DNA of 64,000 nucleotides from Minisyncoccota bacterium (GCA_041657885.1 JBBABB010000001.1:267184-331183), one strand, 5' to 3'; positions 9,235-42,384 are shown, counted from the stretch's first letter. Numbers and translations are program-made. The notes: generated by a model from the sequence alone, not told the origin.

Positions 9235-10716
9235 TTATTTTACTTTCTTAACAATTTTCATGAATAAATCGTTGCGTTCATATTCGTTGTTAAACATTCC
9301 AAATGATGCAAAAGCAGGAGAGAAAAGAATTGTGTCACCTTTCTTTGCTAGTTTAATTGCTTTTTGAATTACGTCTTTCAAATCCTTCCCTATTTCATTC
9401 GTAATTGGTAATTTGTAATTCTTAATTAATTTTTCTGTTCCACTTCCTTCCAGAAAAATTACCGCTTTACAATATTTATTTATAACTTTTACAAAATCAC
9501 CAAGCGGAAGATTTTTGTCTGAACCCCCACAAATTAAAACAATTTTCTTTCCCCCTAGGCCTTGCCTAGGGGACACCAATGCTTCTATCCCCGCTATTGT
9601 CGCATCGGGGGTTGTAGCATTGTTATCATTGTAAATTTTTATTCCCTTATATATTTTTAGTAGTTGGAGACGTCCCTCTAATCCTTTAAATTTTTCTATA
9701 CTCTTTTTAATAGCTTCCATTGGCACGCCAAGCACTTGTGCGACGGCTACTGCACAAGCCATATTTTCTCGATGGTGGATTCCAGGGACATTGAATTTCC
9801 AACTTTCAACATCTTTTTTATCTATAACAATCAACTTTCCTTTTATTTCATTTTTATTTATTAACTTTTTCATTCCAGGACGGATAATAAGAATATCTCC
9901 CTTTTTTTGAAATTTAAAAATATTTGCCTTATCACTAAAATATCTCTCCATTGCTTTACTTGTAGTGAACTTAGTTGAACTATAATAATTCATATGGTCA
10001 GGCATAAATGTTGTAAAAACGGAAATATGAGGAGAAAGTTTCGCTTCGCCGAACCCTTGTAATTGCCAAGAATCTAATTCACAAACTAAAATATCACCAT
10101 CTTTTACTTTTTTAAGCAACGGTAATGTTGCAACACCACGAAGATTGCCACCTAAATATACATTTCTTTTTCCTCGTCCCGCCGTAGCCTTGGCGGAGGA
10201 GGATAAAATCTCATAAATCAAAGTTGTCGTCATCGATTTCCCTCTTGTCCCTGTTACTCCGATTATCATTACACCAGGTGCACATTTAGCAAAAAGAGAG
10301 ACGTCCATCTCAACGGGAATATTATTCTTTTTTGCCTCAGCAATATAGATGGAATCAAGAGGAACCCCTGCAGATTTTATAATCATATCTCTATCTTTAA
10401 AATTCTCAAGCCTATGTTCTCCTAAGACAAATTTTACTTTAGCTCCGTGATCGCGAAGCGATTTTACGGGGTTTTTTGAATTCTTATCCTTAATTCTTAA
10501 CCCGCCTGCTCCCGAACTATCGTGAGGGCGGGCAGGTTCGTAATTCTTAATTGCTTCTACTGAAGCTTTGAGTTGTTCTTTTGTCTTCAAGTCTGTGACT
10601 ATCAAATCTGCCCCGCATTCTGCCAAGAATTTGGTATATCCCAACCCACGTCCCAAAATCCCCAGTCCCATAACTGTAATTTTCTTCCCCTTAAAAAATT
10701 GTTTGTAATTTTTCAT
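9235..10716 (-). CDS. murD: UDP-N-acetylmuramoylalanine--D-glutamate ligase, carrying at least three in-frame GC-rich palindromic insertions
   Basis: The 493 aa protein has an N-terminal Rossmann fold (MGLGILGRGLG) and the Mur ligase P-loop GVTGTRGKSMTT. The segment ARPHDSSGAGGLRIKDKNSKNPVKSLRDHGAKV is atypical, and GC-rich repeats lie at 9551-9573, 10175-10202 and 10501-10535. Confidence 0.85.
   Translation of the reverse strand: MKNYKQFFKGKKITVMGLGILGRGLGYTKFLAECGADLIVTDLKTKEQLKASVEAIKNYEPARPHDSSGAGGLRIKDKNSKNPVKSLRDHGAKVKFVLGEHRLENFKDRDMIIKSAGVPLDSIYIAEAKKNNIPVEMDVSLFAKCAPGVMIIGVTGTRGKSMTTTLIYEILSSSAKATAGRGKRNVYLGGNLRGVATLPLLKKVKDGDILVCELDSWQLQGFGEAKLSPHISVFTTFMPDHMNYYSSTKFTTSKAMERYFSDKANIFKFQKKGDILIIRPGMKKLINKNEIKGKLIVIDKKDVESWKFNVPGIHHRENMACAVAVAQVLGVPMEAIKKSIEKFKGLEGRLQLLKIYKGIKIYNDNNATTPDATIAGIEALVSPRQGLGGKKIVLICGGSDKNLPLGDFVKVINKYCKAVIFLEGSGTEKLIKNYKLPITNEIGKDLKDVIQKAIKLAKKGDTILFSPAFASFGMFNNEYERNDLFMKIVKKVK
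9551..9573. repeat. Family B palindrome ccccctaggccttgcctagggga (in frame in murD; second copy 37527-37547 in miaA)
   Basis: It is the inverted repeat CCTAGGC/GCCTAGG flanked by C and G runs, and is identical apart from the central base in the two genes. Confidence 0.75.
10175..10202. repeat. Family C GC-rich repeat (CGCCGTAGCC-TTGG-CGGAGGCGG-like), in-frame copy in murD
   Basis: It reads cgtcccgccgtagccttggcggaggagg. Related copies are 20232-20259 (intergenic), 27369-27397 (leuS), and weaker variants at 37751-37776 and 14641-14665. Confidence 0.6.
10501..10535. repeat. Family A GC-rich palindrome (cccgcctgctcc-N-gggcgggcagg), in-frame copy in murD
   Basis: It reads cccgcctgctcccgaactatcgtgagggcgggcagg, a hairpin CCCGCC/GGCGGG. 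Other copies are at 40039-40069 (alr) and 42111-42140 (murB), and split arms lie at 19844-19854 and 19944-19953. Confidence 0.8.
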
Positions 10717-14576: not shown

Positions 14577-15770
14577 ATGAAAATTCTGGCGATTGAAACA
14601 TCGTGTGACGAAACAGGAATAAGTATATTGGAGGTGAAAAAACCTGCCTCGCGCCAAGGCGGGTCTGGTAAAAAAGATATTTTTAAAATTTTAGCCAATA
14701 ATATACATTCCCAAGTTGAAATTCACGCCCAATATGGCGGTGTTTTCCCTGCTCTGGCTAAAAGAGAACATATAAAGAATCTACCTATTCTTTTTGAAAA
14801 AACAATTAAACAAGCAAAAATAAAAATAGAACAAATTGATGCAATCGCTGTAACATATGGACCTGGTCTTGAACCAGCCCTTTGGACTGGAATAGTTTTT
14901 GCTAAGGAACTTTCAAAGAAATACAATATTCCAATCGTGAAAGTTAATCATATGGAGGGTCATATATTTTCTATATTTCCCAAAAAAAGAAAAACATTCA
15001 CAATTGATTCTGATAAAAAAATATTCCCAATGCTTTCACTTCTTGTTTCAGGTGGACACACTGAACTTATTTTAGTAAAAAATTGGCACAAATATAAAAA
15101 AATAGGGCAAACGCGAGATGATGCAGTTGGGGAAGCTTTTGATAAAGTAGCACGTATGCTTGGACTTCCCTATCCGGGAGGACCAGAGGTCTCAAAGCTG
15201 GCAGAAATAGAACGAGAAAAAATTCCCCTCTCGAGGGGTGGCTTGAAAAGTCGGGGTGGATGCATTCCACCTCCCCCTTCGGGTACTCCTCAAGAGGAGA
15301 ATCTGCAACTCCCACGTCCTATGATTTATTCAAAAGATTATGATTTCTCTTTTTCGGGATTAAAAACCGCAGTATTGTATCTAATAAGAGATTTAAAAAA
15401 AGAACATTCCGACATTCTTGAGAATGTCGGAATAAAACAAAAAATCGCAAAAGAATTTGAAGATGCGGTAGTTGAAACATTAGTATACAAAACAATAAAA
15501 GCAATTAAAGAATATAAAATAAAAACTCTTATTGTTGGTGGTGGGGTCTCGGCAAATAAATATTTACAGGAGATAATGAACAAAGAAGTAAAAAATCTAA
15601 ATTTTAGTAGTCGGACTACTAAAATTTTAACAAAAGTTCACTTCCCTTCTAAAAGTTTAACTGGAGATAATGCTCTTATGATTGCTATCGCTGGATATTT
15701 TCAATATAAAAATAAAAAAGGAGTAAAAAATTTAAATTCTATAAAAGCCAAAGGAAATTTATCTTTATGA
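14577..15770 (+). CDS. tsaD: tRNA N6-adenosine threonylcarbamoyltransferase TsaD (Kae1/Gcp family) with a roughly 30 aa in-frame GC-rich insertion
   Basis: MKILAIETSCDETGISIL... and the HMEGH metal site match TsaD. The segment IPLSRGGLKSRGGCIPPPPSGTPQEENLQLPRP, encoded by the GC-rich palindromic DNA at 15225-15318, is not part of canonical TsaD. Confidence 0.85.
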   Translation: MKILAIETSCDETGISILEVKKPASRQGGSGKKDIFKILANNIHSQVEIHAQYGGVFPALAKREHIKNLPILFEKTIKQAKIKIEQIDAIAVTYGPGLEPALWTGIVFAKELSKKYNIPIVKVNHMEGHIFSIFPKKRKTFTIDSDKKIFPMLSLLVSGGHTELILVKNWHKYKKIGQTRDDAVGEAFDKVARMLGLPYPGGPEVSKLAEIEREKIPLSRGGLKSRGGCIPPPPSGTPQEENLQLPRPMIYSKDYDFSFSGLKTAVLYLIRDLKKEHSDILENVGIKQKIAKEFEDAVVETLVYKTIKAIKEYKIKTLIVGGGVSANKYLQEIMNKEVKNLNFSSRTTKILTKVHFPSKSLTGDNALMIAIAGYFQYKNKKGVKNLNSIKAKGNLSL

Positions 15771-18102: not shown

Positions 18103-18816
18103 ATGATTGAATTATTACAAAATCCTAAAATACTCTTGTTCGCCATTATAAGTGGTATAGTTCCAGCTATATTTTGGCTTTGGTTTTGGCTAAAAGAAGA
18201 AGATGAAGACGATCGTGAACCAATAGGACTTATCATTATATCTTTCATACTTGGTGGATTAATGGTTTTTGTTGCTGTTTGGCTTGAAAAATACTCCCTA
18301 AACTTTATTAAAGATAGTACTGTAAAAATTGTAACGTGGGCAACCATTGAAGAATTGCTTAAGTTTTTTGGCGTGGCAATTATTATATTCGGAAATCGTA
18401 ATATCAATGAGCCAATAGATTATCCTATATATTTTATAGCAACAGCACTAGGATTTGCTGCACTGGAAAATTTCCTTTATTTATTAAATCCATTTAATGT
18501 AAGCGGAACAATGGTCGGTATGCTTACTGGGAATTTGAGGTTCCTTGGTTCTACTTTACTACATGCCATATCAAGTGCTATGATAGGTAGTGCTCTGGGA
18601 TTATCTTTTTACCTAAAAAAATATCGAGCAATATATCTTTTCGCTGGTATATTATGTGCTGTCGCCTTGCATAGTGTCTTTAATTTTTTTATAATGAAAG
18701 GAAGTGGTGAAAATTTCCTTTCTGTTTTTGGATTTTTGTGGGTCGTCACGATTATTAACATACTTATATTTGAAAAATTAAAACGTATGGGCAAACATGT
18801 TCCCGTACTTAATTAA
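18103..18816 (+). CDS. PrsW-family intramembrane metalloprotease-like membrane protein
   Basis: The 237 aa polytopic protein has an EExxK motif (IEELLKFFG) and downstream His-containing helices (HAIS, ALHSVFNFF), as in PrsW/M82. Confidence 0.45.
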   Translation: MIELLQNPKILLFAIISGIVPAIFWLWFWLKEEDEDDREPIGLIIISFILGGLMVFVAVWLEKYSLNFIKDSTVKIVTWATIEELLKFFGVAIIIFGNRNINEPIDYPIYFIATALGFAALENFLYLLNPFNVSGTMVGMLTGNLRFLGSTLLHAISSAMIGSALGLSFYLKKYRAIYLFAGILCAVALHSVFNFFIMKGSGENFLSVFGFLWVVTIINILIFEKLKRMGKHVPVLN

Positions 18817-20918: not shown

Positions 20919-22808
20919 CTAATTGTTACTACCACGTATCATTTTTAAAAACACATCATGGGATATGTTTATTTTTGCGTTTGATTGCATTCTTTTCTTA
21001 CCCCTTTTTTGTTTCTCAAGCAACTTTTTCTTTCTACTCACATCCCCTCCACCCACAACTTTACTTCTGTGCATAAGAACATCCTTTCTGAAAGCAGACA
21101 CTGATTCTGATGATATAATTCGCCCTAATGCCTTCCCTTGAATTTTAAAAGCAAATTGCTGTCTTGGAATAATATCTTTTAATTTTTCAACTTGGGCTTT
21201 CGCTTCATCTGTCACTTTTCTTCGTGATACCACTCGACAAAATGCCACCATTGGTTCATCAGCGACAACGATATCAAGCCTAACAACATCAGCTTCTCTG
21301 TACTCACCTATTTCATACGAAATAGAAGAATACCCCGAAGTGATGCTTTTCATATCATCAAAAAAATTACGCATGAGTTCTCGTAATGGCATTTCTAAAT
21401 CAATCGAGGACCTGTTGTCTCCAAAATTATCAGTTCCTTTAACTATGGCTTCGTGGTCATAGAAGAATGGCATAAGAGAACTTATATAGGTTGATGGGGT
21501 GATAATTTTTACATTGACCCACGGCTCAAAAACTTTGACGATATTTCCATCATCAGGGAAAAGATGAGGTGAGTAAATAATTTCTTCTTTTCCATTACGA
21601 AGTAATACTTTGTAAGTAATAGAAGGCATTGTTACTATTAATTGTAAATTAAATTCACGACTCAACCTTTCTGTAATTATTTCTAAATGAAGCATCCCCA
21701 AAAAACCACAGCGATATCCTCTCCCAAGTGAACCTGAATTTTCTTCTTCATATGAAAAAGATGAATCTGATAGTCGTAGTCGCCCCAGTGCTTGTCTGAG
21801 ATTGGGAAAATCATCCTGACTTTCTGGGTACACAGAGGCCCAAACTACTGGTTTAGGATTTTTATACCCCGGTAAAGCAAGCATCGGCTTTTTAAGAAAA
21901 GTAATAGTATCTCCAACTGATGCAATTCCTGGTTTTTTAATACCTGTCACAATATAACCAATTTCTCCACTACTTAAAAATTCACGTGGTTGTTCTTCGG
22001 GAGAAAATGTCCCAACTTCAAGTGAAATAAATTTTTCGGCAGAAACTGCAAACAAAAGTGATTCTCCTTTTTTAAATCCTCCATTAACCACACGTACATA
22101 AACTATAACTCCTCTATGATTATCATATTTGAAATCAAAAACTAAAGCTCGCCCTGTGTTTGATGATAATGCTAAATTTTCTCCAATATGAGGACAAGGA
22201 ATCTTTTTTATTATTTCTTCAAGTAACATTGCCACACCCTCACCCGTTTTTCCCGAAACAAGTAAAATAGTGTCTGGGTCGATGTCTAAAAGTAGCGCCA
22301 CTTCCATTTTTATTTCTTCAACTCGAGCCAGTGATGAATCAATCTTGGAAAGTACTGGTATAATCACAAGCCCAGAATCACGCGCCATTTGTAAGGTAGT
22401 GAGTGTTTGAGCTTGCACGCCCTGAGTCGCGTCCACGAGCAAAATAGAGCCTTCTACGGCCTTAAGAGCGCGAGAAACTTCATAAGAGAAGTCAATATGC
22501 CCAGGCGTATCTATCAAATTCAAAATATAATTCTCACCCCCTCCATGCCTCCCCCAAGAGGAGAGGTTTTGAATTTCCCCTTCCCCTTTGGGGAGGGGTT
22601 GGGGTGAGGTGTACTCCATTCTAACGGGCTGCATTTTTATAGTAATACCACGTTCTCTTTCCAATTCCATTGAATCTAAAACTTGATCTTTCATTTTACG
22701 TTTTTCTATCGTGCCAGTTATTTCTATCATTCGGTCAGCCAAAGTACTCTTGCCATGGTCAATGTGGGCAATAATTGAAAAATTTCTGATATTCTTAATA
22801 TCTGTCAT
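20919..22808 (-). CDS. lepA: Elongation factor 4 (LepA) with an in-frame MITE-like insertion of about 26 aa in the GTPase domain
   Basis: FSIIAHIDHGKSTLADR, NLIDTPGH and the LepA C-terminal domain match EF4. The insertion SPQPLPKGEGEIQNLSSWGRHGGGEN is encoded by the GC-rich element at 22534-22612. Confidence 0.9.
   Translation of the reverse strand: MTDIKNIRNFSIIAHIDHGKSTLADRMIEITGTIEKRKMKDQVLDSMELERERGITIKMQPVRMEYTSPQPLPKGEGEIQNLSSWGRHGGGENYILNLIDTPGHIDFSYEVSRALKAVEGSILLVDATQGVQAQTLTTLQMARDSGLVIIPVLSKIDSSLARVEEIKMEVALLLDIDPDTILLVSGKTGEGVAMLLEEIIKKIPCPHIGENLALSSNTGRALVFDFKYDNHRGVIVYVRVVNGGFKKGESLLFAVSAEKFISLEVGTFSPEEQPREFLSSGEIGYIVTGIKKPGIASVGDTITFLKKPMLALPGYKNPKPVVWASVYPESQDDFPNLRQALGRLRLSDSSFSYEEENSGSLGRGYRCGFLGMLHLEIITERLSREFNLQLIVTMPSITYKVLLRNGKEEIIYSPHLFPDDGNIVKVFEPWVNVKIITPSTYISSLMPFFYDHEAIVKGTDNFGDNRSSIDLEMPLRELMRNFFDDMKSITSGYSSISYEIGEYREADVVRLDIVVADEPMVAFCRVVSRRKVTDEAKAQVEKLKDIIPRQQFAFKIQGKALGRIISSESVSAFRKDVLMHRSKVVGGGDVSRKKKLLEKQKRGKKRMQSNAKINISHDVFLKMIRGSNN
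22534..22612 (-). mobile_element. Solo MITE-like GC-rich element (family F) inserted in frame in lepA
   Basis: It reads ctcacccccctccatgcctcccccaagaggagaggttttgaatttccccttcccctttggggaggggttggggtgag, with terminal inverted repeats CTCACCCC/GGGGTGAG. It is related to the leuS copies. Confidence 0.55.
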
Positions 22809-27038: not shown

Positions 27039-29849
27039 CTAGACGACTATGTTGATAACTTTACCTGTAACATAAATAACTCTTTTAATCTCTTTATTCT
27101 CTGTCCAAGCGATTATACTCTTGTTTTTGAGGGCTATATTTTTAATTTCTTCTTCAGTTATATCCTTTGATATCATGATTTCAGCCCTAACTTTACCATT
27201 TACCTGTATTGCTATTTTTATTTCTTCTTCTATAATTTTCTTTTTGTCCCATTTTGGCCATTTACTTTTATTTATGGACTTTTTTTCTCCCAATAAATAC
27301 CATAACTCTTCTGTTATATGAGGGGCAAATGGCGAGAGAATTTGAAGAAACATTTTAAAATCTTTCTTCGTCACGCCGTAGCCTTTGGCGAAGGCGGATT
27401 CCATCTCATTTATCAATACCATCATAGATGAAACCGCTGTGTTGAAATTCATGGACTCTATATCTTCCGAAACTTTTTTGATTGTTTTATGAAGAAGCGT
27501 TTGAAACGAAGCAACCCCTCCTAAATCCTCCCCAGAAGGAAGGACTTTAAATTCCACTCCCTTCCCTTTGGGAAGGGTTGGGGATGGGTTGTAATGAATC
27601 CTCTCTCCTATTCGCCAAACTTTTTCAAGAAAACGACGCGACCCGATTATACTTTTTGTGTTCCAAACAACTGTCTGGTCGAATGGGCCCATAAACATTT
27701 CATAAAGTCGCAAAGTGTCTGCGCCATAAGTTTTCACGATATCGTCTGGATTAACAATATTGCCAAAGCGTTTAGACATTTTTCTCCCATCTTCACCGAT
27801 AATTAAACCAACTGATTGTAATTTCTTAAATGGTTCAAGAGTTGAAACAACTCCAATATCATAAAGGAATTTGTGCCAAAAACGAGCATAAATTAAATGC
27901 CTTGTGGCATGTTCAGCTCCGCCGACATAAAAATCAACTTGATTCCAATATTTTTCCTTTTTCTTATCAACTAGAGCTTTGTTGTTCTTTGGATCCATAT
28001 AACGCAAGTAATACCACGAACTCCCAGCCCATTGGGGCATTGTATTTGTTTCGCGTTTCATCATTTTTGCATTTTTACCTTTACCAACTTTAACATTTAC
28101 CCAATTAGAAATATTTGCCAGTGGTGATTCCCCTGTACCAGTTGGTTCATAAAATTTTACTCTTGGTAAAACAACTGGTAAATCTTTTTCCTTAATAGGA
28201 ACAATTTTGTCGCCATCGTGCAAAACAGGAATTGGTTCCCCCCAATAACGTTGTCTTGAAAATACCCAATCACGAAGTTTGTATTTTGTAACAATTTTTC
28301 CGCCAACTTCTTTGGTAATTTCATTAGCATCAACAAGCTGTCTATTAATAATTGGCAAGTTGTATTTTTCAGCAAATTCTTTATCACGACTGTCGTGTTG
28401 TGGTACTGCCATTATTGCTCCCGTGCCGTAACTAGCCAAAACATAATCCGCAATCCAGATTGGGATTTCTTCACCGTTTGCTGGATTTATCGCTTTTATT
28501 CCTTTTAATTCAACTCCTGTTTTTAGTTTATCTTCTCTAGTTCTTTCTATGTCTGTTTTGTTTTTAATTTGTTTTATATAATCTTCTACTTCTTTTTTAT
28601 TTGAAATATTATCAGAAAGTTTCTTCACTAATTCGTGTTCAGGTGCAAGTACAAGATAAGTAGCACCGAAAATAGTATCTGCCCGAGTAGTAAATACTTT
28701 AATACTTCCTAACTCAACCCCTCCTAAATCCTCCCCAAAGGGAAGGACTTTTAATGCTTTATTAATTTTATTTATAACAGAATCTATATTTTTTAAAACT
28801 TCTTCATTTTTAAATCTGATAACTTTAAAACCAAGTATTTTTAAAATTTCAGTTCTTTCTTCATCTTTTTCTTTTTGTAAGTCATGAATATCTCCATCAA
28901 CTTCTATTACTAAATTTTTTGAGAGACACACAAAATCAACAATGAATTTATTTATGATATGTTGTCTTCTAAAATGATATTCTTTATTCTTTTTTAAGAT
29001 TTGCCATAATTTTTTCTCAGCTTCTGTAGAGTTTTCACGCATCTCAAGAACCTTACCTTGAAGCAATTTCCATGTTTGTGAATCTGTCGTATAGTACCCC
29101 GGCATTTCTCCCTTCCCTTTGGGAAGGGCTGGGGATGGGTTCTTAATTTTAAATTCTATTTCACTTCCTTCTGACTTTCCTATCCAGTTTTTTTGACTTT
29201 CTTTAATTGATTCAGGCCAATTCAGTGAATCTAAATCTTTAAGTAATCTTTCAGCATAATCTGTAATGCGAAGCACCCATTGACGCATAGGTTTTTGTTC
29301 AACAAAAAAACCACAACGTTCACATTTACCATCTTCTACATCTTCATTAGCTAAACCAGTTTTGCAAGAAGGACACCAATTAATTGGTTCATACGATTCA
29401 TAAGCTAAACCTTTTTCTAAAAGTTTCAAAAATATCCATTGGGTCCATTTATAAAATTTCGGGTCAGTTGTATTTACTTCTCTAGACCAATCATAATCAA
29501 ATCCGAGTATTTCTAATTGTTTCTTAAAACGAATAACATTTTTAGGTACCGAAACAGCAGGATTAGTTTTAGTTTTTATGGCATAATTTTCAGCCGGAAG
29601 ACCAAAAGCATCAAAACCCATGGGATGCATAACGTTTGCTCCTTGCATTCTCTTCATTCTAGATATGACGTCAGTGGCAATATAACCCTTAGGATGACCA
29701 ACATGAAGACCTTCACCAGAAAGATATGGGAACATATCAAGCACATAATATTTAGGCTTTTTAGAAAAATCTAAAGTTTTATAAATTTTCTTCTTTTCCC
29801 AATCTTTTTGCCATTTTGATTCTATTTTTTTATGGTCGTATGTTTTCAT
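27039..29849 (-). CDS. leuS: Leucyl-tRNA synthetase carrying two in-frame MITE-like insertions, one with an embedded DUF559 (Vsr-like PD-(D/E)xK) endonuclease domain
   Basis: It is a class I aaRS with HVGHPKGY (HIGH), KMSKRFGN (KMSKS) and the LeuS editing domain, 936 aa in total. Between EIEFKIK and SIKVFTTRADT there is an insert of about 145 aa containing ...LWQILKKNKEYHFRRQHIINKFIVDFVCLSKNLVIEVDGDIHDLQKEKDEERTEILKILGFKVIRFKNEEV..., which matches DUF559. Confidence 0.9.
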   Translation of the reverse strand: MKTYDHKKIESKWQKDWEKKKIYKTLDFSKKPKYYVLDMFPYLSGEGLHVGHPKGYIATDVISRMKRMQGANVMHPMGFDAFGLPAENYAIKTKTNPAVSVPKNVIRFKKQLEILGFDYDWSREVNTTDPKFYKWTQWIFLKLLEKGLAYESYEPINWCPSCKTGLANEDVEDGKCERCGFFVEQKPMRQWVLRITDYAERLLKDLDSLNWPESIKESQKNWIGKSEGSEIEFKIKNPSPALPKGKGEMPGYYTTDSQTWKLLQGKVLEMRENSTEAEKKLWQILKKNKEYHFRRQHIINKFIVDFVCLSKNLVIEVDGDIHDLQKEKDEERTEILKILGFKVIRFKNEEVLKNIDSVINKINKALKVLPFGEDLGGVELGSIKVFTTRADTIFGATYLVLAPEHELVKKLSDNISNKKEVEDYIKQIKNKTDIERTREDKLKTGVELKGIKAINPANGEEIPIWIADYVLASYGTGAIMAVPQHDSRDKEFAEKYNLPIINRQLVDANEITKEVGGKIVTKYKLRDWVFSRQRYWGEPIPVLHDGDKIVPIKEKDLPVVLPRVKFYEPTGTGESPLANISNWVNVKVGKGKNAKMMKRETNTMPQWAGSSWYYLRYMDPKNNKALVDKKKEKYWNQVDFYVGGAEHATRHLIYARFWHKFLYDIGVVSTLEPFKKLQSVGLIIGEDGRKMSKRFGNIVNPDDIVKTYGADTLRLYEMFMGPFDQTVVWNTKSIIGSRRFLEKVWRIGERIHYNPSPTLPKGKGVEFKVLPSGEDLGGVASFQTLLHKTIKKVSEDIESMNFNTAVSSMMVLINEMESAFAKGYGVTKKDFKMFLQILSPFAPHITEELWYLLGEKKSINKSKWPKWDKKKIIEEEIKIAIQVNGKVRAEIMISKDITEEEIKNIALKNKSIIAWTENKEIKRVIYVTGKVINIVV
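27513..27591 (-). mobile_element. Solo family F MITE-like element (both terminal repeats adjacent, no cargo) inserted in frame in leuS
   Basis: It reads caacccctcctaaatcctccccagaaggaaggactttaaattccactcccttccctttgggaagggttggggatgggttg. In the leuS frame this gives NPSPTLPKGKGVEFKVLPSGEDLGGVA. Confidence 0.6.
28715..29141 (-). mobile_element. Family F element with cargo: about 427 bp, with terminal inverted repeats, encoding in frame with leuS a DUF559 endonuclease-like domain
   Basis: The ends caacccctcctaaatcctccccaaagggaaggactttt (28715-28752) and ctcccttccctttgggaagggctggggatgggtt (29108-29141) are inverted repeats. Translated in the leuS frame they give LPFGEDLGGVEL and NPSPALPKGKGE. Confidence 0.6.
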
Positions 29850-30000
29850 GAATTAATGTATTATACCAGAAAAATATGATTATAGGGAAACAATATAAAA
29901 AGCTCCTCTCTGAATAGCTCTTCTTGAAGGGTACGCAAATTTTTTACTAGAAATTTGTTCAGTTCTCGCGCCGTCGCGCTCCAAAGCCCCTTCAATAAGA

Positions 30001-30600
30001 CTATTCAGAGATACGCTTTAATTTCTTCTCCCCTTGGCGTAAAATGACAAAACTATTATTTTCTAGTTTAATGAGAGTTGAAGGTTTTAATTTTCTTTTC
30101 CCGCCGTTGATATATAGATTCGGTCCTAAGCAATGCTTAGGACTGAAATATGCTTTGGCTTGTTTTATTGTTTCCGCAGGTGGTAATCCTTCAGGGTTTG
30201 CGCTTGGCGCCACAAGTGGCCCAACTTTTTTTATTAGATTGTAAAGATTTTTATTTCGAGGTCCAATCATCCGAAAAGCAATTCCATTTGTTCCTCGATG
30301 AATATATTTAAATTTTGAAAGTTTGCAAGGCAAAATGACACTGACTTTCCCCGGCCAAATTTTTTTCAAAAATTTGGCCTGTTCTTTTCCTATCTTTACC
30401 TCAAACAATCTCAAATCATTATACGAAGCAATAAGAACAATAAAAGGTTTATTTTCGTTTCTTCCTTTTATTTCGTAAATTTTTTCAACTACCCTTTTCG
30501 ACATCGCCTTTCCGATTATCCCATACAAAGTATCCGTAGATAATACAACTATCCCATCATTCTTAAGTATTTTTATCGCTTTTTTCCAATCATTTTTCAT
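30001..30600 (-). CDS. tsaC: L-threonylcarbamoyladenylate synthase (TsaC/YrdC/Sua5 family)
   Basis: The 199 aa protein has the YrdC-domain motifs VVLSTDTLYGIIG and IKGRNENKPFIVL. Confidence 0.7.
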   Translation of the reverse strand: MKNDWKKAIKILKNDGIVVLSTDTLYGIIGKAMSKRVVEKIYEIKGRNENKPFIVLIASYNDLRLFEVKIGKEQAKFLKKIWPGKVSVILPCKLSKFKYIHRGTNGIAFRMIGPRNKNLYNLIKKVGPLVAPSANPEGLPPAETIKQAKAYFSPKHCLGPNLYINGGKRKLKPSTLIKLENNSFVILRQGEKKLKRISE

Positions 30601-30602
30601 TA

Positions 30603-31592
30603 TTATATTCTAAACTCTATTACATCCCCATTTTTAACTATATAATCCTTGCCTTCTGTCCTCACTTTCCCATGGGCGCGAGCGTCAGTGTAACTTCCAG
30701 CATTGAGCAAATCCTGCCAATACACAACTTCGGCACGAATAAATTTATCTCGAAAATCCGTGTGAATTGCCATCCCAGCCACAGGTGCGGTGCTTCCCTT
30801 TTTTATTGTCCAAGCTCGTGTCTCATCAAGTCCCGTTGTAAAATAAGTTTGAAGCCCAAGCAATTCATAACTTTTTGTAATCAATTCATCAAAACCACTT
30901 TCAAAAACAGGATCAACTTTTACTGAACAAATGTTTGGAAGTTCGACTTCCAAATTTGGGCACGCCTGCGAAGTATTTAGCACATAAAGCATTGGTTTCA
31001 GTGTAAGTAAATTCAAAGATTTAATTTTAAATTTTTCATCATCATTCAAGTTTGCTTCTGTGGCCATTTCCCCTTTTTCAAAAACAACCATCAGCTTTTT
31101 CAAAATTAATTCTTCAGCAATTGCCTCTTTATCTTGTTTTTTTAATTCCTTTCCTATGCTTGCAATTCTCTTTGAAACTATTTCAAAATCAGAAAGAACA
31201 AGCTCGAGATTTATAACCCCAATATCATCCATTGGATTTATTTTATTTTCTACATGGATTACTGAATTGTCTTCAAATGTACGCACCACGTGTGCAATCG
31301 CATTCACTTCACGAATATTCGTTAAAAATTTATTTCCAAGACCTTCCCCTTTTGATGCTCCAGCTACAAGCCCGGCGATATCCACGAATTCTATAACCGC
31401 TGGAATTGTCTTGGCTGACTTGGAAAACTCCGAAAGCTTCCATAAACGCTCGTCAGGAACAGGCACAATCCCCACAGATGGGTCTATTGTGCAAAATGGG
31501 TAATTCTCACAAGGTACACTCTTTTTCGTAAGAGCGTTAAACAGCGTGGATTTCCCGACATTTGGCAAACCAACAATTCCGATACTAAGCAT
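30603..31592 (-). CDS. ychF: Ribosome-binding ATPase YchF (Obg-family GTPase/ATPase)
   Basis: The 329 aa protein has the G1 motif GIVGLPNVGKSTLFNALT and a C-terminal TGS domain (HTDFRDKFIRAEVV). Confidence 0.8.
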   Translation of the reverse strand: MLSIGIVGLPNVGKSTLFNALTKKSVPCENYPFCTIDPSVGIVPVPDERLWKLSEFSKSAKTIPAVIEFVDIAGLVAGASKGEGLGNKFLTNIREVNAIAHVVRTFEDNSVIHVENKINPMDDIGVINLELVLSDFEIVSKRIASIGKELKKQDKEAIAEELILKKLMVVFEKGEMATEANLNDDEKFKIKSLNLLTLKPMLYVLNTSQACPNLEVELPNICSVKVDPVFESGFDELITKSYELLGLQTYFTTGLDETRAWTIKKGSTAPVAGMAIHTDFRDKFIRAEVVYWQDLLNAGSYTDARAHGKVRTEGKDYIVKNGDVIEFRI

Positions 31593-31957
31593 AGAATGAG
31601 TTTAACAAAAAAAAATTATATTTCCAAATACAAAATTAAATGATAATATTAAATTATGGAAAAAATACCAGAAATAAGATTTGTTCCCTTCGAGAGATTT
31701 GCTGTAAAGGCTGAGCAAAAAGAGAATCCTAGGCTAATGCCATATTTGTCATATTCTATAGCAATACCAGATGAAGAGAGTAAAAATGTAGTTAATAATT
31801 TAATAAAAGAAGATTTGGAAAGACTTTTCGAAGAATAGATAAGGTCAGTTTTGTCTTAATATTTCCATTCAAACATCATCCCAAGTTCGGAGCCAGTTAG
31901 TATAGAGATATTCAAAGCTATTTACTATTTAAGTATAAAGGTGTTATAATATATAAT

Positions 31958-33403
31958 ATGAAAACAAATATTATAAAAAGGGGTGTTATAACTTTATTTT
32001 TATTAATAATTTTTTTAATCTCTCCTTCGGTTTTAGCTCAAGAACAAGTTCAAGTTTATTCAGGATTTAATAGATTTACTGATAATGTCAGATTACTTTT
32101 TTCTAATGGAGATAGTAAAGTTAGGTTAGCTTTAGAAATAAGAAAAAAAGAAGTAAATTCTGCTTTAGAAAATACAAAAAATGGTAAAACTGAAAATGCT
32201 ACCAATAATCTTAAGAGGGCTCAAAAAAAACTTAAAGTTATTCAAGAAAGTGTATCCCTAAAAACTTCTGAAGAGGTTAAGATAAGTGTTGAAGAAATTC
32301 AAAAAATAATAGATGAAGATAATCTCCCGGAAAAGTTTAGAGAGTACAAATTAGAAGAAGAAAAAACACAATTAGCTACAGAGCTTACTCTAAAAACTTT
32401 TGAATATTGTAAAGAACTTGCAAAAGGAGGATACGAGGAAATGCTAAAAGAAGAAGTATGTAATCCAGATACTGCGCAAGAAGGACTAGAGGATGAATTA
32501 AAAGAACTAAAAAATCTTCAAGAAAAATTATTCACTGATTTAATGTGGAATATTAGAAGTTGTATAGATGACCCTGGAACTTGTAGTTGTGATGAAGTTC
32601 TTGATATTGGACAAAAAACAAAATGCCAAAAAATGATTGCTTTTGCAATTAAATGTGAATATAAAGAGGATGAAATCTCTTGTGGTGAATTAAAAGCCAT
32701 GGAACCTAAACAAGGAGATAATTTTGCAGAAAGTTTTATCCCTAGTTTTTTAATGAATTTATTTAAAGAAAAACAATCAATGATAGATTATAATATTCAA
32801 AAGTCAGATGGTGTTCCTCCTGAATGCTGGAATTATAATAATAAACCAGAATGTAGACAATATGATTATCTAAAAGAATGGCATTATAGGGGGGAGAATG
32901 ATGAAGAAAGGCCGGGGAAACCGAAAGAAAAAGAACCAACAATGCAAGAATCAATTCCAGTATGTTTCAATAAAGATGGAACTTTTCTAGAAGAAAAATG
33001 TGGAGAAATTATAATAGTTAAAAATGAGAAAGGGTTAATAAATTATATTACTAAAAATCAGATTGATGAAATTATTAATAATTTTGAAAATGTTTCAGAA
33101 GAACATAAGATAGATATAAATGGAGAAAAAGGAGGAATCATGATAAATGAAATGAAGGAAGAAATTAATAATATTAAAGAAGAGATAGGAGAAAGAACTT
33201 TTGCTCCGGGAACTCAGGAAACTGGAAAAGTAGAAAATGATGTAAAAAATAATGTAATAGAAGAAAATAATGGTGCAAAAGATGGTGATGATGGTTTAAA
33301 ACCAGAAATTAAGATAGATGTTGATTCTGATTCTAATAATGGAGATGATGGTTTTACTAATGAAATTAAAACAGATATTTCTGGAAGTAGCCAAAATAAC
33401 TAA
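31958..33403 (+). CDS. Hypothetical secreted protein (signal peptide, Cys-containing central region, acidic Gly/Asp-rich C-terminus)
   Basis: The 481 aa protein has an N-terminal signal peptide (FLLIIFLISPSVLAQEQ) and a K/E-rich coiled-coil region. I recognise no family. Confidence 0.45.
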   Translation: MKTNIIKRGVITLFLLIIFLISPSVLAQEQVQVYSGFNRFTDNVRLLFSNGDSKVRLALEIRKKEVNSALENTKNGKTENATNNLKRAQKKLKVIQESVSLKTSEEVKISVEEIQKIIDEDNLPEKFREYKLEEEKTQLATELTLKTFEYCKELAKGGYEEMLKEEVCNPDTAQEGLEDELKELKNLQEKLFTDLMWNIRSCIDDPGTCSCDEVLDIGQKTKCQKMIAFAIKCEYKEDEISCGELKAMEPKQGDNFAESFIPSFLMNLFKEKQSMIDYNIQKSDGVPPECWNYNNKPECRQYDYLKEWHYRGENDEERPGKPKEKEPTMQESIPVCFNKDGTFLEEKCGEIIIVKNEKGLINYITKNQIDEIINNFENVSEEHKIDINGEKGGIMINEMKEEINNIKEEIGERTFAPGTQETGKVENDVKNNVIEENNGAKDGDDGLKPEIKIDVDSDSNNGDDGFTNEIKTDISGSSQNN

Positions 33404-33433
33404 AAAGGTCGAGATTAAAAAAAAATTAATTAT

Positions 33434-33781
33434 ATGAAAATAAAAATATTTTCTAATGTTGCAAAAGTTTGTGTAGTTTTATTAGTAGTTTCTACCCTTA
33501 TTTACAGAATTACTGAAATAATGCTTTTTAAAGGTACGGTGGGATACTCATTCTCTAGTGCTATTACTGGGATGATAACCTTAATTCTTCTTTTAGCAGT
33601 TTCCTTTTTTTGTTTACACAAAAAACAAAAATGGGGATTTTGGTATTGTCTTTTCTTGTTTATCTTCTTGCTCCTGGCTTATCTATTTAAAGCTCCTTTT
33701 GTTTGGCCATATGCTGTTTTTGTAATTCTGTCTATAATTCCGATTATTTCACTATTTATTTTAAAAAAGGAATTTAAATAA
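33434..33781 (+). CDS. Hypothetical integral membrane protein
   Basis: The 115 aa protein has 3-4 predicted TM helices. Confidence 0.4.
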   Translation: MKIKIFSNVAKVCVVLLVVSTLIYRITEIMLFKGTVGYSFSSAITGMITLILLLAVSFFCLHKKQKWGFWYCLFLFIFLLLAYLFKAPFVWPYAVFVILSIIPIISLFILKKEFK

Positions 33782-39935: not shown

Positions 39936-41099
39936 TTATTTAATAACTCTTGGCAAAAGAGCACTTATCCTTGTTGTTGCTTCATAATTTATCGTTCCTG
40001 ACTCCTTAGCAATTTGTTCAGCAGTAATTTCATTTTTACCCCGCCTGCTCCCTCGTGAGGGCGGGCAGGCCTGTTTTCCTAAAATTACGACTTCATCCTC
40101 TGGCAACACATCTTTAATATGAGAAATATCAACTACAATCATATTCATAGCAACTCTCCCCAAAATTTTTGCTCTCTTACCTTTTACTAAAACTTCCCCA
40201 GTATTTGAAAGCAGACGTGGAATACCATCAGCATAACCCTGTGGAATTACTGCTATCTTGGTCGTTTTCTTTGTTATATATGTAAGCCCATAACCGATTG
40301 GATGATTCGCGGGGAGAACTTTAATCTGAGCTACGTGTGTCACCCATTTCAAAACTGGTTTCAAAATTATTTTCTTTTTATTTAAATATTCTAAATGTTC
40401 ACTTGGCCACATTCCATAAAGCCCGATACCAAGTCGAACAATATTGTGTAAGCTATTTCCTTTTTCATAAACTAGAATTCCAGAAGTTGCTGAAATGTGG
40501 GTTTTAATATTTTCAAAACTATTTTTTCTAAAAATTTCTACACATTTATGATACATATCTATTTGTTTCTGTGCGTAGGTGAAATTCATGGTGTCTTCAA
40601 TATTTGCAAAATGAGAATAAATTCCATCGAGTTCTATATTCTTCAACTTTTTGAGTTCAACAATAAAATTATCAATCTGGCTTGGCATTATTCCTTCTCT
40701 ACCAAGACAAGAATCAATAGCAACATGTACTTTGACTTTCATTTTTAAACTCCCAGCAATAAAATTTATTTTCAATAAATGAATCAAATCAAAAGCAGAT
40801 ATTATCGCTTTTGATTTTATGGCTCTTTTTATACCATCTCCATTCAAATAACCAAATACCAAAACGGGTTTATTTGTAACCTTTCCAACTCTTTCAAATT
40901 CTTCAATACTATTTACTTGGAAATAATCTGTATAAGGAGCAATAATTTTCGTCACCTCAACATCCCCATGCCCGTAAGCATTTGCTTTTATAACAGAAGC
41001 AATCTTTGTACCGTTTTTCAGTAATCCTCGAAACTGCTTGATATTATGTATCAAGTTTTCTTTTGAAATCTCTATATATGAAAGTGGTAAATTTTGCAT
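39936..41099 (-). CDS. alr: Alanine racemase with an in-frame family A palindrome insertion. Its start is revised to the internal Met because the longer ORF overlaps tRNA-Leu.
   Basis: ASVIKANAYGHGDVEV contains the PLP-lysine motif and the fold is Alr-like. QACPPSRGSRRGKNEI is encoded by ccccgcctgctccctcgtgagggcgggcagg at 40039-40069. The track ORF 39936-41177 would overlap the tRNA at 41102-41183. Confidence 0.75.
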   Translation of the reverse strand: MQNLPLSYIEISKENLIHNIKQFRGLLKNGTKIASVIKANAYGHGDVEVTKIIAPYTDYFQVNSIEEFERVGKVTNKPVLVFGYLNGDGIKRAIKSKAIISAFDLIHLLKINFIAGSLKMKVKVHVAIDSCLGREGIMPSQIDNFIVELKKLKNIELDGIYSHFANIEDTMNFTYAQKQIDMYHKCVEIFRKNSFENIKTHISATSGILVYEKGNSLHNIVRLGIGLYGMWPSEHLEYLNKKKIILKPVLKWVTHVAQIKVLPANHPIGYGLTYITKKTTKIAVIPQGYADGIPRLLSNTGEVLVKGKRAKILGRVAMNMIVVDISHIKDVLPEDEVVILGKQACPPSRGSRRGKNEITAEQIAKESGTINYEATTRISALLPRVIK

Positions 41100-41101
41100 T
41101 G

Positions 41102-41183
41102 TGCCGGAGGAGAGAATCGAACTCTCACCCCTTACGAGACACGATTTTGAGTCGTGCGCGTCTACCAATTCCGCCACTCCGGC
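41102..41183 (-). tRNA. tRNA-Leu (anticodon CAA), type II with a long variable arm
   Basis: The minus-strand read GCCGGAGTGGCGGAATTGGTAGACGCGCACGACTCAAAATCGTGTCTCGTAAGGGGTGAGAGTTCGATTCTCTCCTCCGGCA has anticodon loop CTCAAAA and T-loop TTCGATT. Confidence 0.8.
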
Positions 41184-41220: not shown

Positions 41221-42384
41221 TTATATTATCTCCGGTTCTTGCTCTAGTGTTATCCCAAATTTTTGCTCAACTATTTTTATTATTTCATTTCTAGCATTTA
41301 TAAGATCTTCTTTTGTAGCATTTCCGTTGTTTACCAAGACAAGGGCATTCTTGTCATAGACAGAAACATTACCAAATGACTTCCCTTTTAATCCTGCATT
41401 TTCAATGAGCCAACCAGCGGGAATTTTTACTAGGTCTTGCCTAGTCGTTTCCAGTGGAAAAAATTTAGCATTTGGGAAATCTGCTTTAATTTTATCGGCT
41501 ACACTATTTGAAACAATAGGATTCTTGAAAAATGAACCGACATTTGGAATTTCTTTTGGGTTTGGTAATTTTTCTTTACGAATTTCAATAATTGCTTCGC
41601 GAATTTGTTTTAAATTAGGATTCTCTATTTTGTGTTCTTCGAAATATTTTGAGACGCCAGGATATCCTAATGCTGGAGAAAGGTTTTTTTCTCCTCCTTG
41701 TTGAGGAGGAGTGCCCTTTGGGGCGAGGTGGTGACTAATTAATTCTAAATCACCACCCCCTACCCCCTCCTCCAAAAGGAGGGGAGGAACTTTATTAAGT
41801 CTATATGTTACAGCGGTTATTATGTATTTCCCTTTATCTTCATTTTTGAAAATACTATCACGGTACCCAAATTTACAATCTTTATTTGAAATAGTTTTAA
41901 TTTTATTTTCTTTGATATCAAAAACCTCCACTTCCAAAATGGTATCTTTAACTTCTACTCCATAAGCCCCGACATTTTGGACTGGCGTTGCTCCAACTGT
42001 TCCAGGAATTGCCGAAAGTGCCTCTAATCCTTGCAGATTCATTTCAACAGTTTTCTCTACAATTTTGTCCCAAATCTCGCCAGCTCCAACTTTTATATCT
42101 GCATATTTTTCCGTTTCGTTCCCGCCTGCTCCCTTGTGAGGGCGGGCAGGTATTATTTCAAAACCTTTAATTTCTATTTTTATAGCAAACACATCAATAA
42201 TTCCATCCGAAAATACAATATTTGAACCCCCGCCTAATATAAAAATTGGGGTATTTTTTTCTCTTGCCATTAAATAAACATTTCCTAGCTCATCTTTTTT
42301 ATCAATTTTTACAAAATAGCGAAATTGCCCTCCTATATGTAGTGATGAATAATCCCGGATATCTACGTATTCTTGTATTTTCAT
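41221..42384 (-). CDS. murB: UDP-N-acetylenolpyruvoylglucosamine reductase MurB with two in-frame GC-rich palindromic insertions
   Basis: It has an FAD-binding domain (ILGGGSNIVF) and a MurB C-terminal domain. Inserts occur at ARPHKGAGGNETEK (family A, 42111-42140) and VPPLLLEEGVGGGDLELISHHLAPKGTPPQQGGEK (41690-41790). Confidence 0.8.
   Translation of the reverse strand: MKIQEYVDIRDYSSLHIGGQFRYFVKIDKKDELGNVYLMAREKNTPIFILGGGSNIVFSDGIIDVFAIKIEIKGFEIIPARPHKGAGGNETEKYADIKVGAGEIWDKIVEKTVEMNLQGLEALSAIPGTVGATPVQNVGAYGVEVKDTILEVEVFDIKENKIKTISNKDCKFGYRDSIFKNEDKGKYIITAVTYRLNKVPPLLLEEGVGGGDLELISHHLAPKGTPPQQGGEKNLSPALGYPGVSKYFEEHKIENPNLKQIREAIIEIRKEKLPNPKEIPNVGSFFKNPIVSNSVADKIKADFPNAKFFPLETTRQDLVKIPAGWLIENAGLKGKSFGNVSVYDKNALVLVNNGNATKEDLINARNEIIKIVEQKFGITLEQEPEII

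Follow-up and report, generated by a model that had tools for sequence, protein, structure and literature searches.

The stretch of DNA analysed here, to which we refer as the window, is a segment of 64,000 nucleotides from a Candidatus Paceibacterota metagenome-assembled genome (MAG; Patescibacteria, or candidate phyla radiation), and it is AT-rich, with 33% G+C; the bacterium is of an ultra-small kind. One of its genes, the essential leuS, codes for a leucyl-tRNA synthetase (LeuRS) in which, at the start of the editing domain and between the peptides EFKIK and IKVFTTRADT, we found an in-frame insert consisting of a small nuclease gene of the DUF559 family enclosed by two inverted GC-rich palindromic units, hereafter called arms; an element made of two arms only lies in another part of the same gene, and a further one in lepA, the gene for elongation factor 4 (Table 1). 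The host is a genuine leuS, as indicated by the match to TIGR00396 leuS_bact (962.6 bits, with a cut-off of 548) and by the Pfam matches to tRNA-synt_1, the editing domain and Anticodon_1. Its product is identical to a protein of a Candidatus Paceibacterota MAG at NCBI, labelled there only as 'class I tRNA ligase family protein', a vague naming for which the insert may be responsible. Since the cassette was found in independent NCBI, JGI, ENA and Logan assemblies, an assembly artefact was rejected.

Table 1. Location of the elements and of their host genes in the window.
Feature	Position	Strand	Basis and remarks
leuS (leucyl-tRNA synthetase, 936 aa)	27039..29849	minus	Open reading frame (ORF) search and translation; host of the nuclease cassette and of one arm-only doublet
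Cargo element, 429 bp (143 codons): left arm, DUF559 nuclease ORF, right arm	28713..29141	minus	Arm-delimited
Left arm, inverted copy of the unit	29106..29141	minus	Coding strand AACCCATCCCCAGCCCTTCCCAAAGGGAAGGGAGAA, translation NPSPALPKGKGE
DUF559 (Vsr-like PD-(D/E)xK) nuclease domain, LeuRS residues 269-366	28752..29045	minus	PF04480
Right arm, direct copy of the unit	28713..28751	minus	Coding strand AAAGTCCTTCCCTTTGGGGAGGATTTAGGAGGGGTTGAG, translation KVLPFGEDLGGVE
leuS arm-only doublet, 78 bp (26 codons, NPSPTLPKGKGVEFKVLPSGEDLGGV)	27513..27590	minus	Variable loop, LeuRS anticodon-binding domain
lepA (elongation factor 4, 629 aa)	20919..22808	minus	Pfam GTP_EFTU, EFG_C, LepA_C (full LepA domain set)
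lepA arm-only doublet, 78 bp (TSPQPLPKGEGEIQNLSSWGRHGGGE)	22533..22610	minus	G-domain loop directly before YILNLIDTPGH

The basic unit of the family is an imperfect GC-rich palindrome of about 36 nt, with the coding-strand sequence AAAGTCCTTCCC-NNN-GGGGAGGATTTAGGAGGGG, whose hairpin core, CCCTTCCCTTTGGGAAGGG, has six matches in the window at up to three mismatches, against 0.02 expected from shuffled sequences. The long element is composed, in this order, of an inverted unit, a stop-free segment of 119 codons with the DUF559 domain, and a direct unit, the left arm (hairpin CCCTTCCC-AAA-GGGAAGGG) being an inverted repeat of the right one; in the 78-bp elements the two arms are spaced by about 6–10 nt only. 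The leuS doublet and the cargo copy share about 95% identity in their arms, the lepA doublet is a more diverged member of the family and, in the contig L049, left and right arm match almost perfectly as inverted repeats. An earlier reading of the window, made from its sequence only, had already described a repeat family with inverted termini, occurring in frame twice in leuS and once in lepA, in which long and short copies have nearly identical arms and differ between them, and our analysis agrees with it on all these points. In fact, in single-strand folds the termini of the leuS doublet pair as an outer stem, accompanied by two hairpins (−22.2 kcal/mol, z = −4.0), those of the lepA doublet pair too (z = −2.6), and the two arms of the 429-nt element pair over about 30 bp (z = −2.9). 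The same reading stated that the copies are stop-free and multiples of 3 bp long, which is true for the arm-delimited lengths of 429, 78 and 78 bp, but not for the spans that it quoted (427, 79 and 79 bp), and that they add similar peptides to their hosts, which holds only in part for lepA, where a peptide of the PLPKGEGE type comes from the first arm only, the second arm being translated in a different register (WGRHGGGE). The DUF559 gene of the cargo copy has an ATG directly after the left arm (29103–29105) and no stop codon of its own; all the copies found in genes keep the frame and are stop-free, and the methionine after the left arm is lost in about half of the embedded DUF559 copies.

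The interior of the long copy encodes a complete DUF559 domain, as had been suggested, with a match to PF04480 (E = 1.6 × 10−33; 115 bits, with a cut-off of 20.6) that covers positions 9–108 of the 109 of the profile. NCBIfam NF007294 was matched as well, under its equivalog cut-off (E = 1.4 × 10−20), and the DUF559 protein of PDB entry 3hrl was matched both in sequence (E = 4 × 10−18) and in structure, ranking first (TM score 0.85) in a Foldseek search with the domain modelled alone. The second-best structural match was the catalytic domain of I-Bth0305I (3r3p; E = 1.7 × 10−4, TM score 0.72, 25% identity), and Vsr was matched more weakly than both. I-Bth0305I is a homodimer, and its specificity is highest for a 14-bp pseudopalindrome where it cleaves (PMC3239194). 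When the domain was modelled alone by AlphaFold, the predicted local distance difference test score (pLDDT) of its core was about 84–97, with one loop block at 65, and within LeuRS it was 67–90. Between embedded copies, the ratio of non-synonymous to synonymous substitution rates (dN/dS), measured in the host frame, was 0.07–0.25; thus, the nuclease is under purifying selection in the frame of the host. DUF559 is a very large family, with 21,937 cluster representatives in an exhaustive HMMER search, and has no function assigned in Pfam.

As judged by comparison with related genes, the cassette is an insertion that recurs at one LeuRS position, and its transfer between diverged alleles has taken place, as have its loss and erosion. 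Of the 120 LeuRS homologs that are closest, this position (site 1) is empty in about 75 and filled with DUF559, at the same codon position, in about 30; the spacing between WIGKSxG and FTTRxDT is of 16 residues at the empty sites and of 157 aa in the window. Proteins as close as 76–81% identity to the window LeuRS have the empty site (e.g., P0126, SEIEFKIKNHSEKIKVFTTRADT), and P0124, which is 80% identical, has only a remnant of the DUF559 C-terminus left there. At the position of the leuS doublet the relatives have different, shorter loop sequences, and the LepA relatives L003, L055, L060, L016 and L084 have an empty site, 21 codons shorter. Compared to the empty orthologous sites, leuS has a net 141 codons more and lepA 21, and in both leuS site 1 and lepA the element replaces about 15 bp of the loop; the junction peptides of the cassette in LeuRS are EFKIK-NPSPALPK and LGGVELGSIKVF. 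At the lepA site, a Nomurabacteria MAG (L007, about 18212–18547) has a diverged insert, TSPQLSPQNIGGSGGSFSNQRKAGGE, and the closest relative (L011) has an AT-rich extra segment of 14 residues, possibly a decayed copy.

The empty sites in the closest LeuRS and LepA relatives bear out the proposal that these segments were inserted and are not ancestral. The leuS segment does occur in other LeuRS lineages, which the sequence-only reading would have taken as a sign of an ancestral domain; however, its distribution is patchy, the phylogenies of insert and host disagree, and decayed remnants are found, a pattern in keeping with the repeated invasion of one site. The insert of the window and that of L081 share 80% amino acid, 83% nucleotide and 70% third-position identity, against 67%, 66–69% and 38–49%, respectively, for the host gene. 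Moreover, in 190 pairs from 20 DUF559-bearing LeuRS the identities of host and insert were uncorrelated (Spearman 0.12), with hosts that are 73–77% identical carrying inserts at 46–53%, and hosts at 53–60% carrying inserts at 71–72%. In the contig L145, the nucleotides of the insert match those of the window at 100%, and so do about 1.1 kb on the upstream side and 58 nt on the downstream side, as far as FTTRADTIFG; beyond this point the identity of the host gene falls to 61–78% for about 230 nt, as if a recombination tract ended next to the element. Over the region 27400–33500 of the window, blocks 100% identical to L145 alternate with blocks at about 75% (about 29860–30860 and 28430–28662), an alternation which indicates that homologous recombination is probably frequent in this population. 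The end of L145 falls inside the 78-bp doublet, L001 and L049 are short contigs, and assemblies appear to break at these repeats.

A different explanation of the insert is that DUF559 entered an ancestor of these LeuRS a single time and was then inherited vertically, with frequent loss, as a domesticated domain with a role for the host, such as nucleic-acid binding or defence. The strong purifying selection and the roughly 30 LeuRS with the insert at one site would be in line with this, as would the fact that the LeuRS of this clade tolerate other inserted domains, such as NUDIX. We regard it as improbable, since the host and insert phylogenies are incongruent, with some inserts younger than the divergence of their hosts, the same cassette with its arms is present in unrelated proteins and phyla, free-standing copies have the same arms, and remnants and empty sites are found in the closest relatives. 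The NUDIX domain (PF00293) follows KYNLPI in the editing domain of many Paceibacteria LeuRS of 945–990 aa (P0122–P0124, P0132, P0138 and others), and no palindromic arms were seen at the NUDIX insertion of these related LeuRS.

The continuity of the reading frame, the purifying selection and the structure model suggest that translation proceeds through the insert and that this is a part of the LeuRS protein, in which the arms would provide short disordered linkers and the nuclease a separately folding passenger domain. In the AlphaFold model of LeuRS (mean pLDDT 80.6), residues 252–367 form a separate alpha/beta domain, in agreement with the expectation of a folded surface domain, and exactly three segments have a pLDDT below 50, namely residues 238–251, 368–379 and 758–775, which correspond to the left-arm peptide, the right-arm peptide and the 78-bp doublet, respectively. 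The arm peptides, rich in proline and glycine, are thus predicted to be disordered linkers at the surface. The cassette would survive in leuS by occupying a surface loop, keeping the frame and having no stop, with removal neither as an intron nor as an intein. Neither LeuRS nor the insert has a Pfam match to an intein/Hint domain, and no Rfam intron family matched the insert. We also considered that the arms might pair in the mRNA and that the insert might be excised and the RNA re-ligated, as a new kind of intron, or bypassed by the ribosome. The stem of about 30 bp that encloses the whole insert in the RNA fold (z = −2.9), and the precedent of phage T4, where translational bypass occurs with a mobile endonuclease element, would speak for it. 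On the other hand, a frame kept and stop-free over 78–429 nt and the loss of the DUF559 stop would be needless if the insert were removed, and the low dN/dS in the host frame and the lack of both intron and intein/Hint matches also stand against it, so that we believe removal before the protein is made to be very improbable.

What is conserved in the arms is the hairpin of the nucleic acid and not the peptide. The right-arm peptide occurs in the forms ALPxGEG (14 distinct instances) and VLPxGED (15), and never in a mixed one (Fisher p = 1.3 × 10−8); the second codon positions of Ala/Gly and Val/Asp are partners in the stem, as C:G and T:A, respectively, which points to compensatory base-pair change, and the codon of the loop (x) is freely variable. 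In addition, the frame in which the arms are read differs between genes. The unit sequence is stop-free in four of the six frames, according to our own reading, and 34 of 41 arm copies in ORFs of at least 200 aa share one frame, a bias much of which is due to the repeated sampling of the same host sites.

The phenomenon is far wider than the sequence-only reading held, as the unit is found alone, as doublets and around DUF559, both in and between genes. According to the phmmer domain table of the best 150 DUF559 representatives, from which embedded copies were defined, 56 of the 150 are embedded, with at least 60 host residues on each side. Arm-like peptides are found at the boundaries of the embedded copies in 80% of cases upstream and 70% downstream, compared to 7.5% and 3% in control windows. 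The hosts, in a Pfam census of the 80 proteins of at least 240 aa, included LeuRS and SpoIIE phosphatases (7 each), GT2 glycosyltransferases (6), type ISP C-terminal domain and TPR proteins (5 each), MetH activation domain (4), and UDP-GlcNAc 2-epimerase, RecJ and DEAD helicases (2 each); the census total of 80 Pfam families includes DUF559 itself and overlapping families, and distinct host types are fewer. At least two phyla have embedded copies, Patescibacteria and Bacteroidota, the latter by source name (Ca. Amoebophilus asiaticus, Bacteroidaceae bacterium and Bacteroidota bacterium). Some of the embedded copies are annotated as 'very-short-patch-repair endonuclease'. Free-standing copies exist as well: one, in Prevotella, separates argG from argC and is flanked both ways by arm-like hairpins, and in Anaerolineales-type contigs every DUF559 gene has a comparable GC-rich hairpin ahead of it. 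The cassette with the same arm peptides was also found inside TGT, DegT and a Dus-like protein. Downstream of the insert, the TGT (L082, 35–1162) and DegT (L083, 2951–4579) genes have one in-frame stop and are split by gene callers; these stops could result from pseudogenes, sequencing errors or stop-codon recoding.

The exact right-arm pattern, GTCCTTCCNNNNGGGGAGGATTTAGG, was found in 69 metagenome stretches, 11 of which have DUF559 at LeuRS site 1, some of them in long LeuRS ORFs of 1,060–1,160 aa. About 20 have the arm in other long ORFs, with no DUF559 directly upstream, including ValRS, LeuRS near KMSKS and SpoIIE, where the site with plain arms is the same that is filled with DUF559 in P0297 and P0350; in about 35 the arms are intergenic, as singlets or inverted doublets. 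In ValRS (L109, L135, L155), an arm doublet is located eight codons before ATTRPET, the equivalent of LeuRS site 1, and in long-type LeuRS (L123, L132, L134, L154, L163) the arms, single or as doublets, precede the KMSKS loop by about ten codons; of these five loci, at least four (L123, L134, L154, L163) have DUF559 in another part of the same locus. The arm pattern was absent from 2.9 million viral contigs, in which only 9 weak DUF559 relatives were found, and a phage origin was rejected.

The arms are tightly associated with the nuclease. Extra arms elsewhere in the gene are present in 7 of 31 DUF559-bearing LeuRS and in none of the 89 without it (p = 4 × 10−5), and a search of 1.2 Mb from 78 related genomes with a LeuRS devoid of DUF559 detected no arm. 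This suggests that the nuclease may recognise the palindrome. Additional arms also adjoin the cassette itself, in the order arm-DUF559-arm-arm in SpoIIE (P0297) and arm-DUF559-arm-arm' in P0173 and L099. Arm units even occur within the DUF559 gene, where their position is constant, immediately ahead of the FHFRRQH strand (e.g., LLRRNNPSLTLPEGEGKNSKSFHFRRQH), in P0004, P0157, P0158, P0175, P0190 and P0222 and in L128, L149 and L084; the element is thus apparently invaded by its own repeats. The arms also carry other cargo: at LeuRS site 1 of P0125, P0134, P0153 and P0162 there is an alpha/beta-hydrolase (PF06821) in tandem with DUF559 and, at least in P0125, P0134 and P0153, the same arm peptides lie on either side of it. 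Taken together, the extra arms, the nested arms and the hydrolase cargo indicate that the arms behave as modules which multiply in the vicinity of the nuclease gene; this fits a relationship like that of REPINs (doublets of repetitive extragenic palindromes, REPs) with the REP-associated tyrosine transposases (RAYTs) as well as it fits homing.

Accordingly, one has to consider that the system moves like REPIN/RAYT pairs or like MITEs (miniature transposable elements with inverted repeats), with DUF559 cutting the arms and mobilising its own cassette and arm-only copies to new sites, where the repair machinery of the host would join them. In addition to the clustering of extra arms in DUF559-bearing genes, even within the DUF559 gene, to the hydrolase as other cargo between the same arms and to the absence of arms from relatives whose LeuRS lacks DUF559, the inverted arms bracket DUF559 in Patescibacteria, Bacteroidota and Chloroflexi-type contigs, singlets, inverted doublets and brackets occur in and between genes as REPs do around RAYT genes, and a palindromic site would suit a dimeric restriction-like nuclease. 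Against it, comparison of filled and empty DNA detected no target-site duplication at leuS site 1 or in lepA, where the loops are short and variable and old duplications may have eroded; exactly one LeuRS position is used in about 40 independent sequences, which is a better fit to site-specific homing than to transposition; and no PD-(D/E)xK hydrolase is known to transpose DNA alone. To our knowledge, hydrolytic enzymes of this type do not carry out strand transfer on their own. We therefore hold this explanation to be possible but doubtful. With neither a target-site duplication nor a transposase detected, the assignment of the elements to the MITEs, made in the sequence-only reading, is not supported; its other proposal, that DUF559 is the mobilising enzyme, is unproven and has indirect evidence in its favour, namely the co-occurrence of arms and DUF559, the bracketing in three phyla and the I-Bth0305I-like fold.

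The order of events could also have been the opposite: doublets would have spread first, by some other route, and DUF559 would then have homed into a doublet, cutting between the arms and using them as homology. This would account for the many host genes and for the fact that cargo and solo copies differ between the arms only; moreover, the insertion of the gene separates the half-sites and would protect the filled copies, as in classical homing. The SpoIIE site, which is a plain doublet in L104 and filled in P0297 and P0350, is what one would expect from such an order, and the pair formed by L131 (right arm only) and L130 (filled), whose downstream junction is identical, is compatible with it. 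L131 is, however, equally explained by a deletion between the 12-nt direct repeats AARGTCCTYCCC that L130 has at both ends of the cargo; the filled SpoIIE alleles have an extra left arm (arm-DUF559-arm-arm), which is not the simple layout predicted; and no full doublet without DUF559 was found at LeuRS site 1 among the 120 closest homologs, where there are only empty sites, filled sites, remnants and one half-unit. For these reasons, we give this order of events, too, no more than a tentative place.

The explanation that we favour, with modest confidence, is that the leuS insert is an unspliced, translated cassette of the homing-endonuclease type, with arm-only derivatives like REPINs or Rickettsia palindromic elements (RPEs). 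The cassette would spread by homologous recombination between leuS alleles, which the nuclease probably starts by cutting either the unoccupied site or DNA close to it, or else one of the palindromic arms, and the arm peptides, as linkers, would make the insertion harmless. The 78-bp copies are inverted doublets devoid of the nuclease, which may have lost their interior or spread on their own. Beyond leuS, these elements may possibly be members of a widespread and undescribed class, in which a Vsr-like nuclease gene lies between REP-like palindromes that serve as its recognition sites and, once translated, as disordered linkers, the nuclease living unspliced in essential proteins across phyla and seeding arm-only copies nearby; to this broader proposal we attach less than even confidence.

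Several observations weigh against the homing-type cassette. As the nuclease has no stop codon and about half of its copies lack a start as well, it would have to act while tethered inside LeuRS, for which we know of no precedent, and our literature search found no cleavage activity or target site for any DUF559 protein. Classical homing explains the re-invasion of the same site only; it leaves unaccounted for that many different host genes are affected, that arm-only copies occupy new sites and that some cassettes (P0297, P0173) are surrounded by additional arms. Translation through the insert is itself derived from computation. All 80 aligned DUF559-bearing proteins of at least 240 aa have the residues E, W, Q, D (VDF), E.DG..H and R without variation, but the set of the best 150 representatives is skewed to intact copies and this invariance of the catalytic residues is partly a selection effect. 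The counts for covariation and for the association of arms and nuclease are not corrected for shared ancestry. Finally, the pair formed by the window and L145 is mosaic elsewhere too, and the breakpoint beside the insert may be coincidental.

The likeness to RPEs, pointed out in the sequence-only reading, is apt. These are palindromes found in frame in Rickettsia genes (Ogata et al. 2000, reviewed in PMC10969869), and in both cases short palindromes lie in frame in unrelated housekeeping genes, are translated at tolerant positions of the protein surface and decay with time. RPEs are, however, about 100–150 bp long, known only from Rickettsia and have no associated enzyme, whereas here the unit measures about 36 nt (78 bp in doublets), stands out as GC-rich against an AT-rich genome, is found in two phyla or more and encloses a nuclease gene; the likeness is one of architecture and in-frame habit. 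We know of no enzyme identified as the mobiliser of RPE-like palindromes.

With the Vsr-like ('EDxHD') homing endonucleases, such as I-Bth0305I and those of fractured genes, the cassette shares the fold, the fixed positions in conserved genes, the sporadic occurrence and the upstream hairpins (PMC3239194, PMC2677866). Their genes are located in group I introns, between the halves of split inteins or where they split the host, and have their own start and stop as well as extra DNA-binding domains; here, by contrast, a nuclease of about 100 aa lies in frame in an unbroken protein, is bracketed by palindromes and has the motif E.DG..H(D) instead of EDxHD. Vsr-like endonuclease genes can break host genes even without inteins, and one such case has been reported (PMC2677866). 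As for homing genes in general, the cassette is present or absent at one site of a conserved gene and its phylogeny is incongruent with that of the host; it has neither the housing of an intron or intein nor its own start and stop, and free-standing DUF559 relatives exist elsewhere. Inteins with homing domains are likewise selfish, nuclease-bearing in-frame insertions in conserved essential proteins and spread by homing; unlike them, the insert has no Hint/splicing domain, is flanked by Pro/Gly-rich repeat peptides and is predicted to stay in the mature protein.

RAYTs are HUH/Y1 transposases that act on single-stranded hairpins, and REPs are extragenic and have GTAG/CGTC heads. The system described here resembles REP/REPIN-RAYT systems in having singlets, inverted doublets and units that flank an enzyme gene in inverted orientation (PMC3733652), and differs from them in its hydrolytic restriction-like DUF559 enzyme, in the lack of GTAG/CGTC heads and in the units being often within genes. 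As in MITEs, the short copies have terminal inverted repeats and no transposase, and a longer relative carries a gene; differently from MITEs, no target-site duplication was detected, there is no linked transposase family and the cargo copy recurs at one host site. In fact, the partner element has no Pfam match to a transposase, its cargo being DUF559 or, in some relatives, the alpha/beta hydrolase. GC-rich double-hairpin elements have reportedly been described in fungal and algal mitochondria by Paquin, Laforest and Lang in 2000. These, or GC clusters, are similarly GC-rich, with two hairpins, in an AT-rich compact genome, sometimes in frame and near mobile endonuclease ORFs; they are organellar and unrelated in sequence, their ORFs are of the LAGLIDADG or GIY-YIG type, and no bracketed DUF559 cassette is known there. 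Our search of the literature on DUF559, in-frame palindromes, insertions in Patescibacteria and Vsr-like homing endonucleases found no description of this arrangement, most subscription journals being outside its coverage, so that an earlier mention is possible. The components are of known kinds and their combination appears to be new.

Other hairpin elements were observed in the window. A second GC-rich palindrome family, unrelated to the first (CCTGCCCGCCCTCAC..GGGAGCAGGCGGG), is in frame in MurB (42111–42154), MurD (10499–10540) and Alr (40033–40080); it is read in two frames (PARPHKGAGG/PARPHDSSGAGG and ACPPSRGSRRG), and no nuclease accompanies it in the window. MurB has, in addition, a GC-rich in-frame insert of 111 nt with four hairpins (41690–41800; DNA fold −30.9 kcal/mol, z = −6.4), and TsaD has an insert of similar architecture (15215–15300) and a smaller hairpin insert near the N-terminus (14629–14669). 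On the basis of these repeats, this genome seems to have at least three families of in-frame hairpin elements. The 26 N-terminal codons (VAELVDAHDSKSC...) of the Alr ORF (39936..41177) overlap a tRNA-Leu(CAA) (41101–41183), suggesting that the real start of Alr is further downstream. When all Rfam families were searched against the whole window, only 6 tRNAs were found and there was no match on the elements. The PADLOC search for defence systems gave a single marginal match, to DpdF (E = 6 × 10−4), and the reading of the locus as a defence system, which had no other PADLOC support, was rejected.

The general view is that a homing nuclease can live in an essential gene only with the help of an intron or an intein. 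In the present case, the gene of a nuclease is seemingly retained in the mature protein, on linkers derived from its own palindromes, in LeuRS and in dozens of other families. For annotation, the practical consequences lie in the names given to such proteins, as described above, and in contigs that break at the repeats. If the broader proposal of a widespread class is true, the cassette would supply RPE-like palindromes with an enzyme and would represent a third route, besides introns and inteins, by which a homing nuclease may enter a conserved gene. If the nuclease acts on the palindromes, this would offer a testable mobilisation mechanism for in-frame palindromes such as RPEs and a proposed function for the very large DUF559 family, and would show that selfish DNA makes domain insertions and linkers in the essential proteins of compact genomes.

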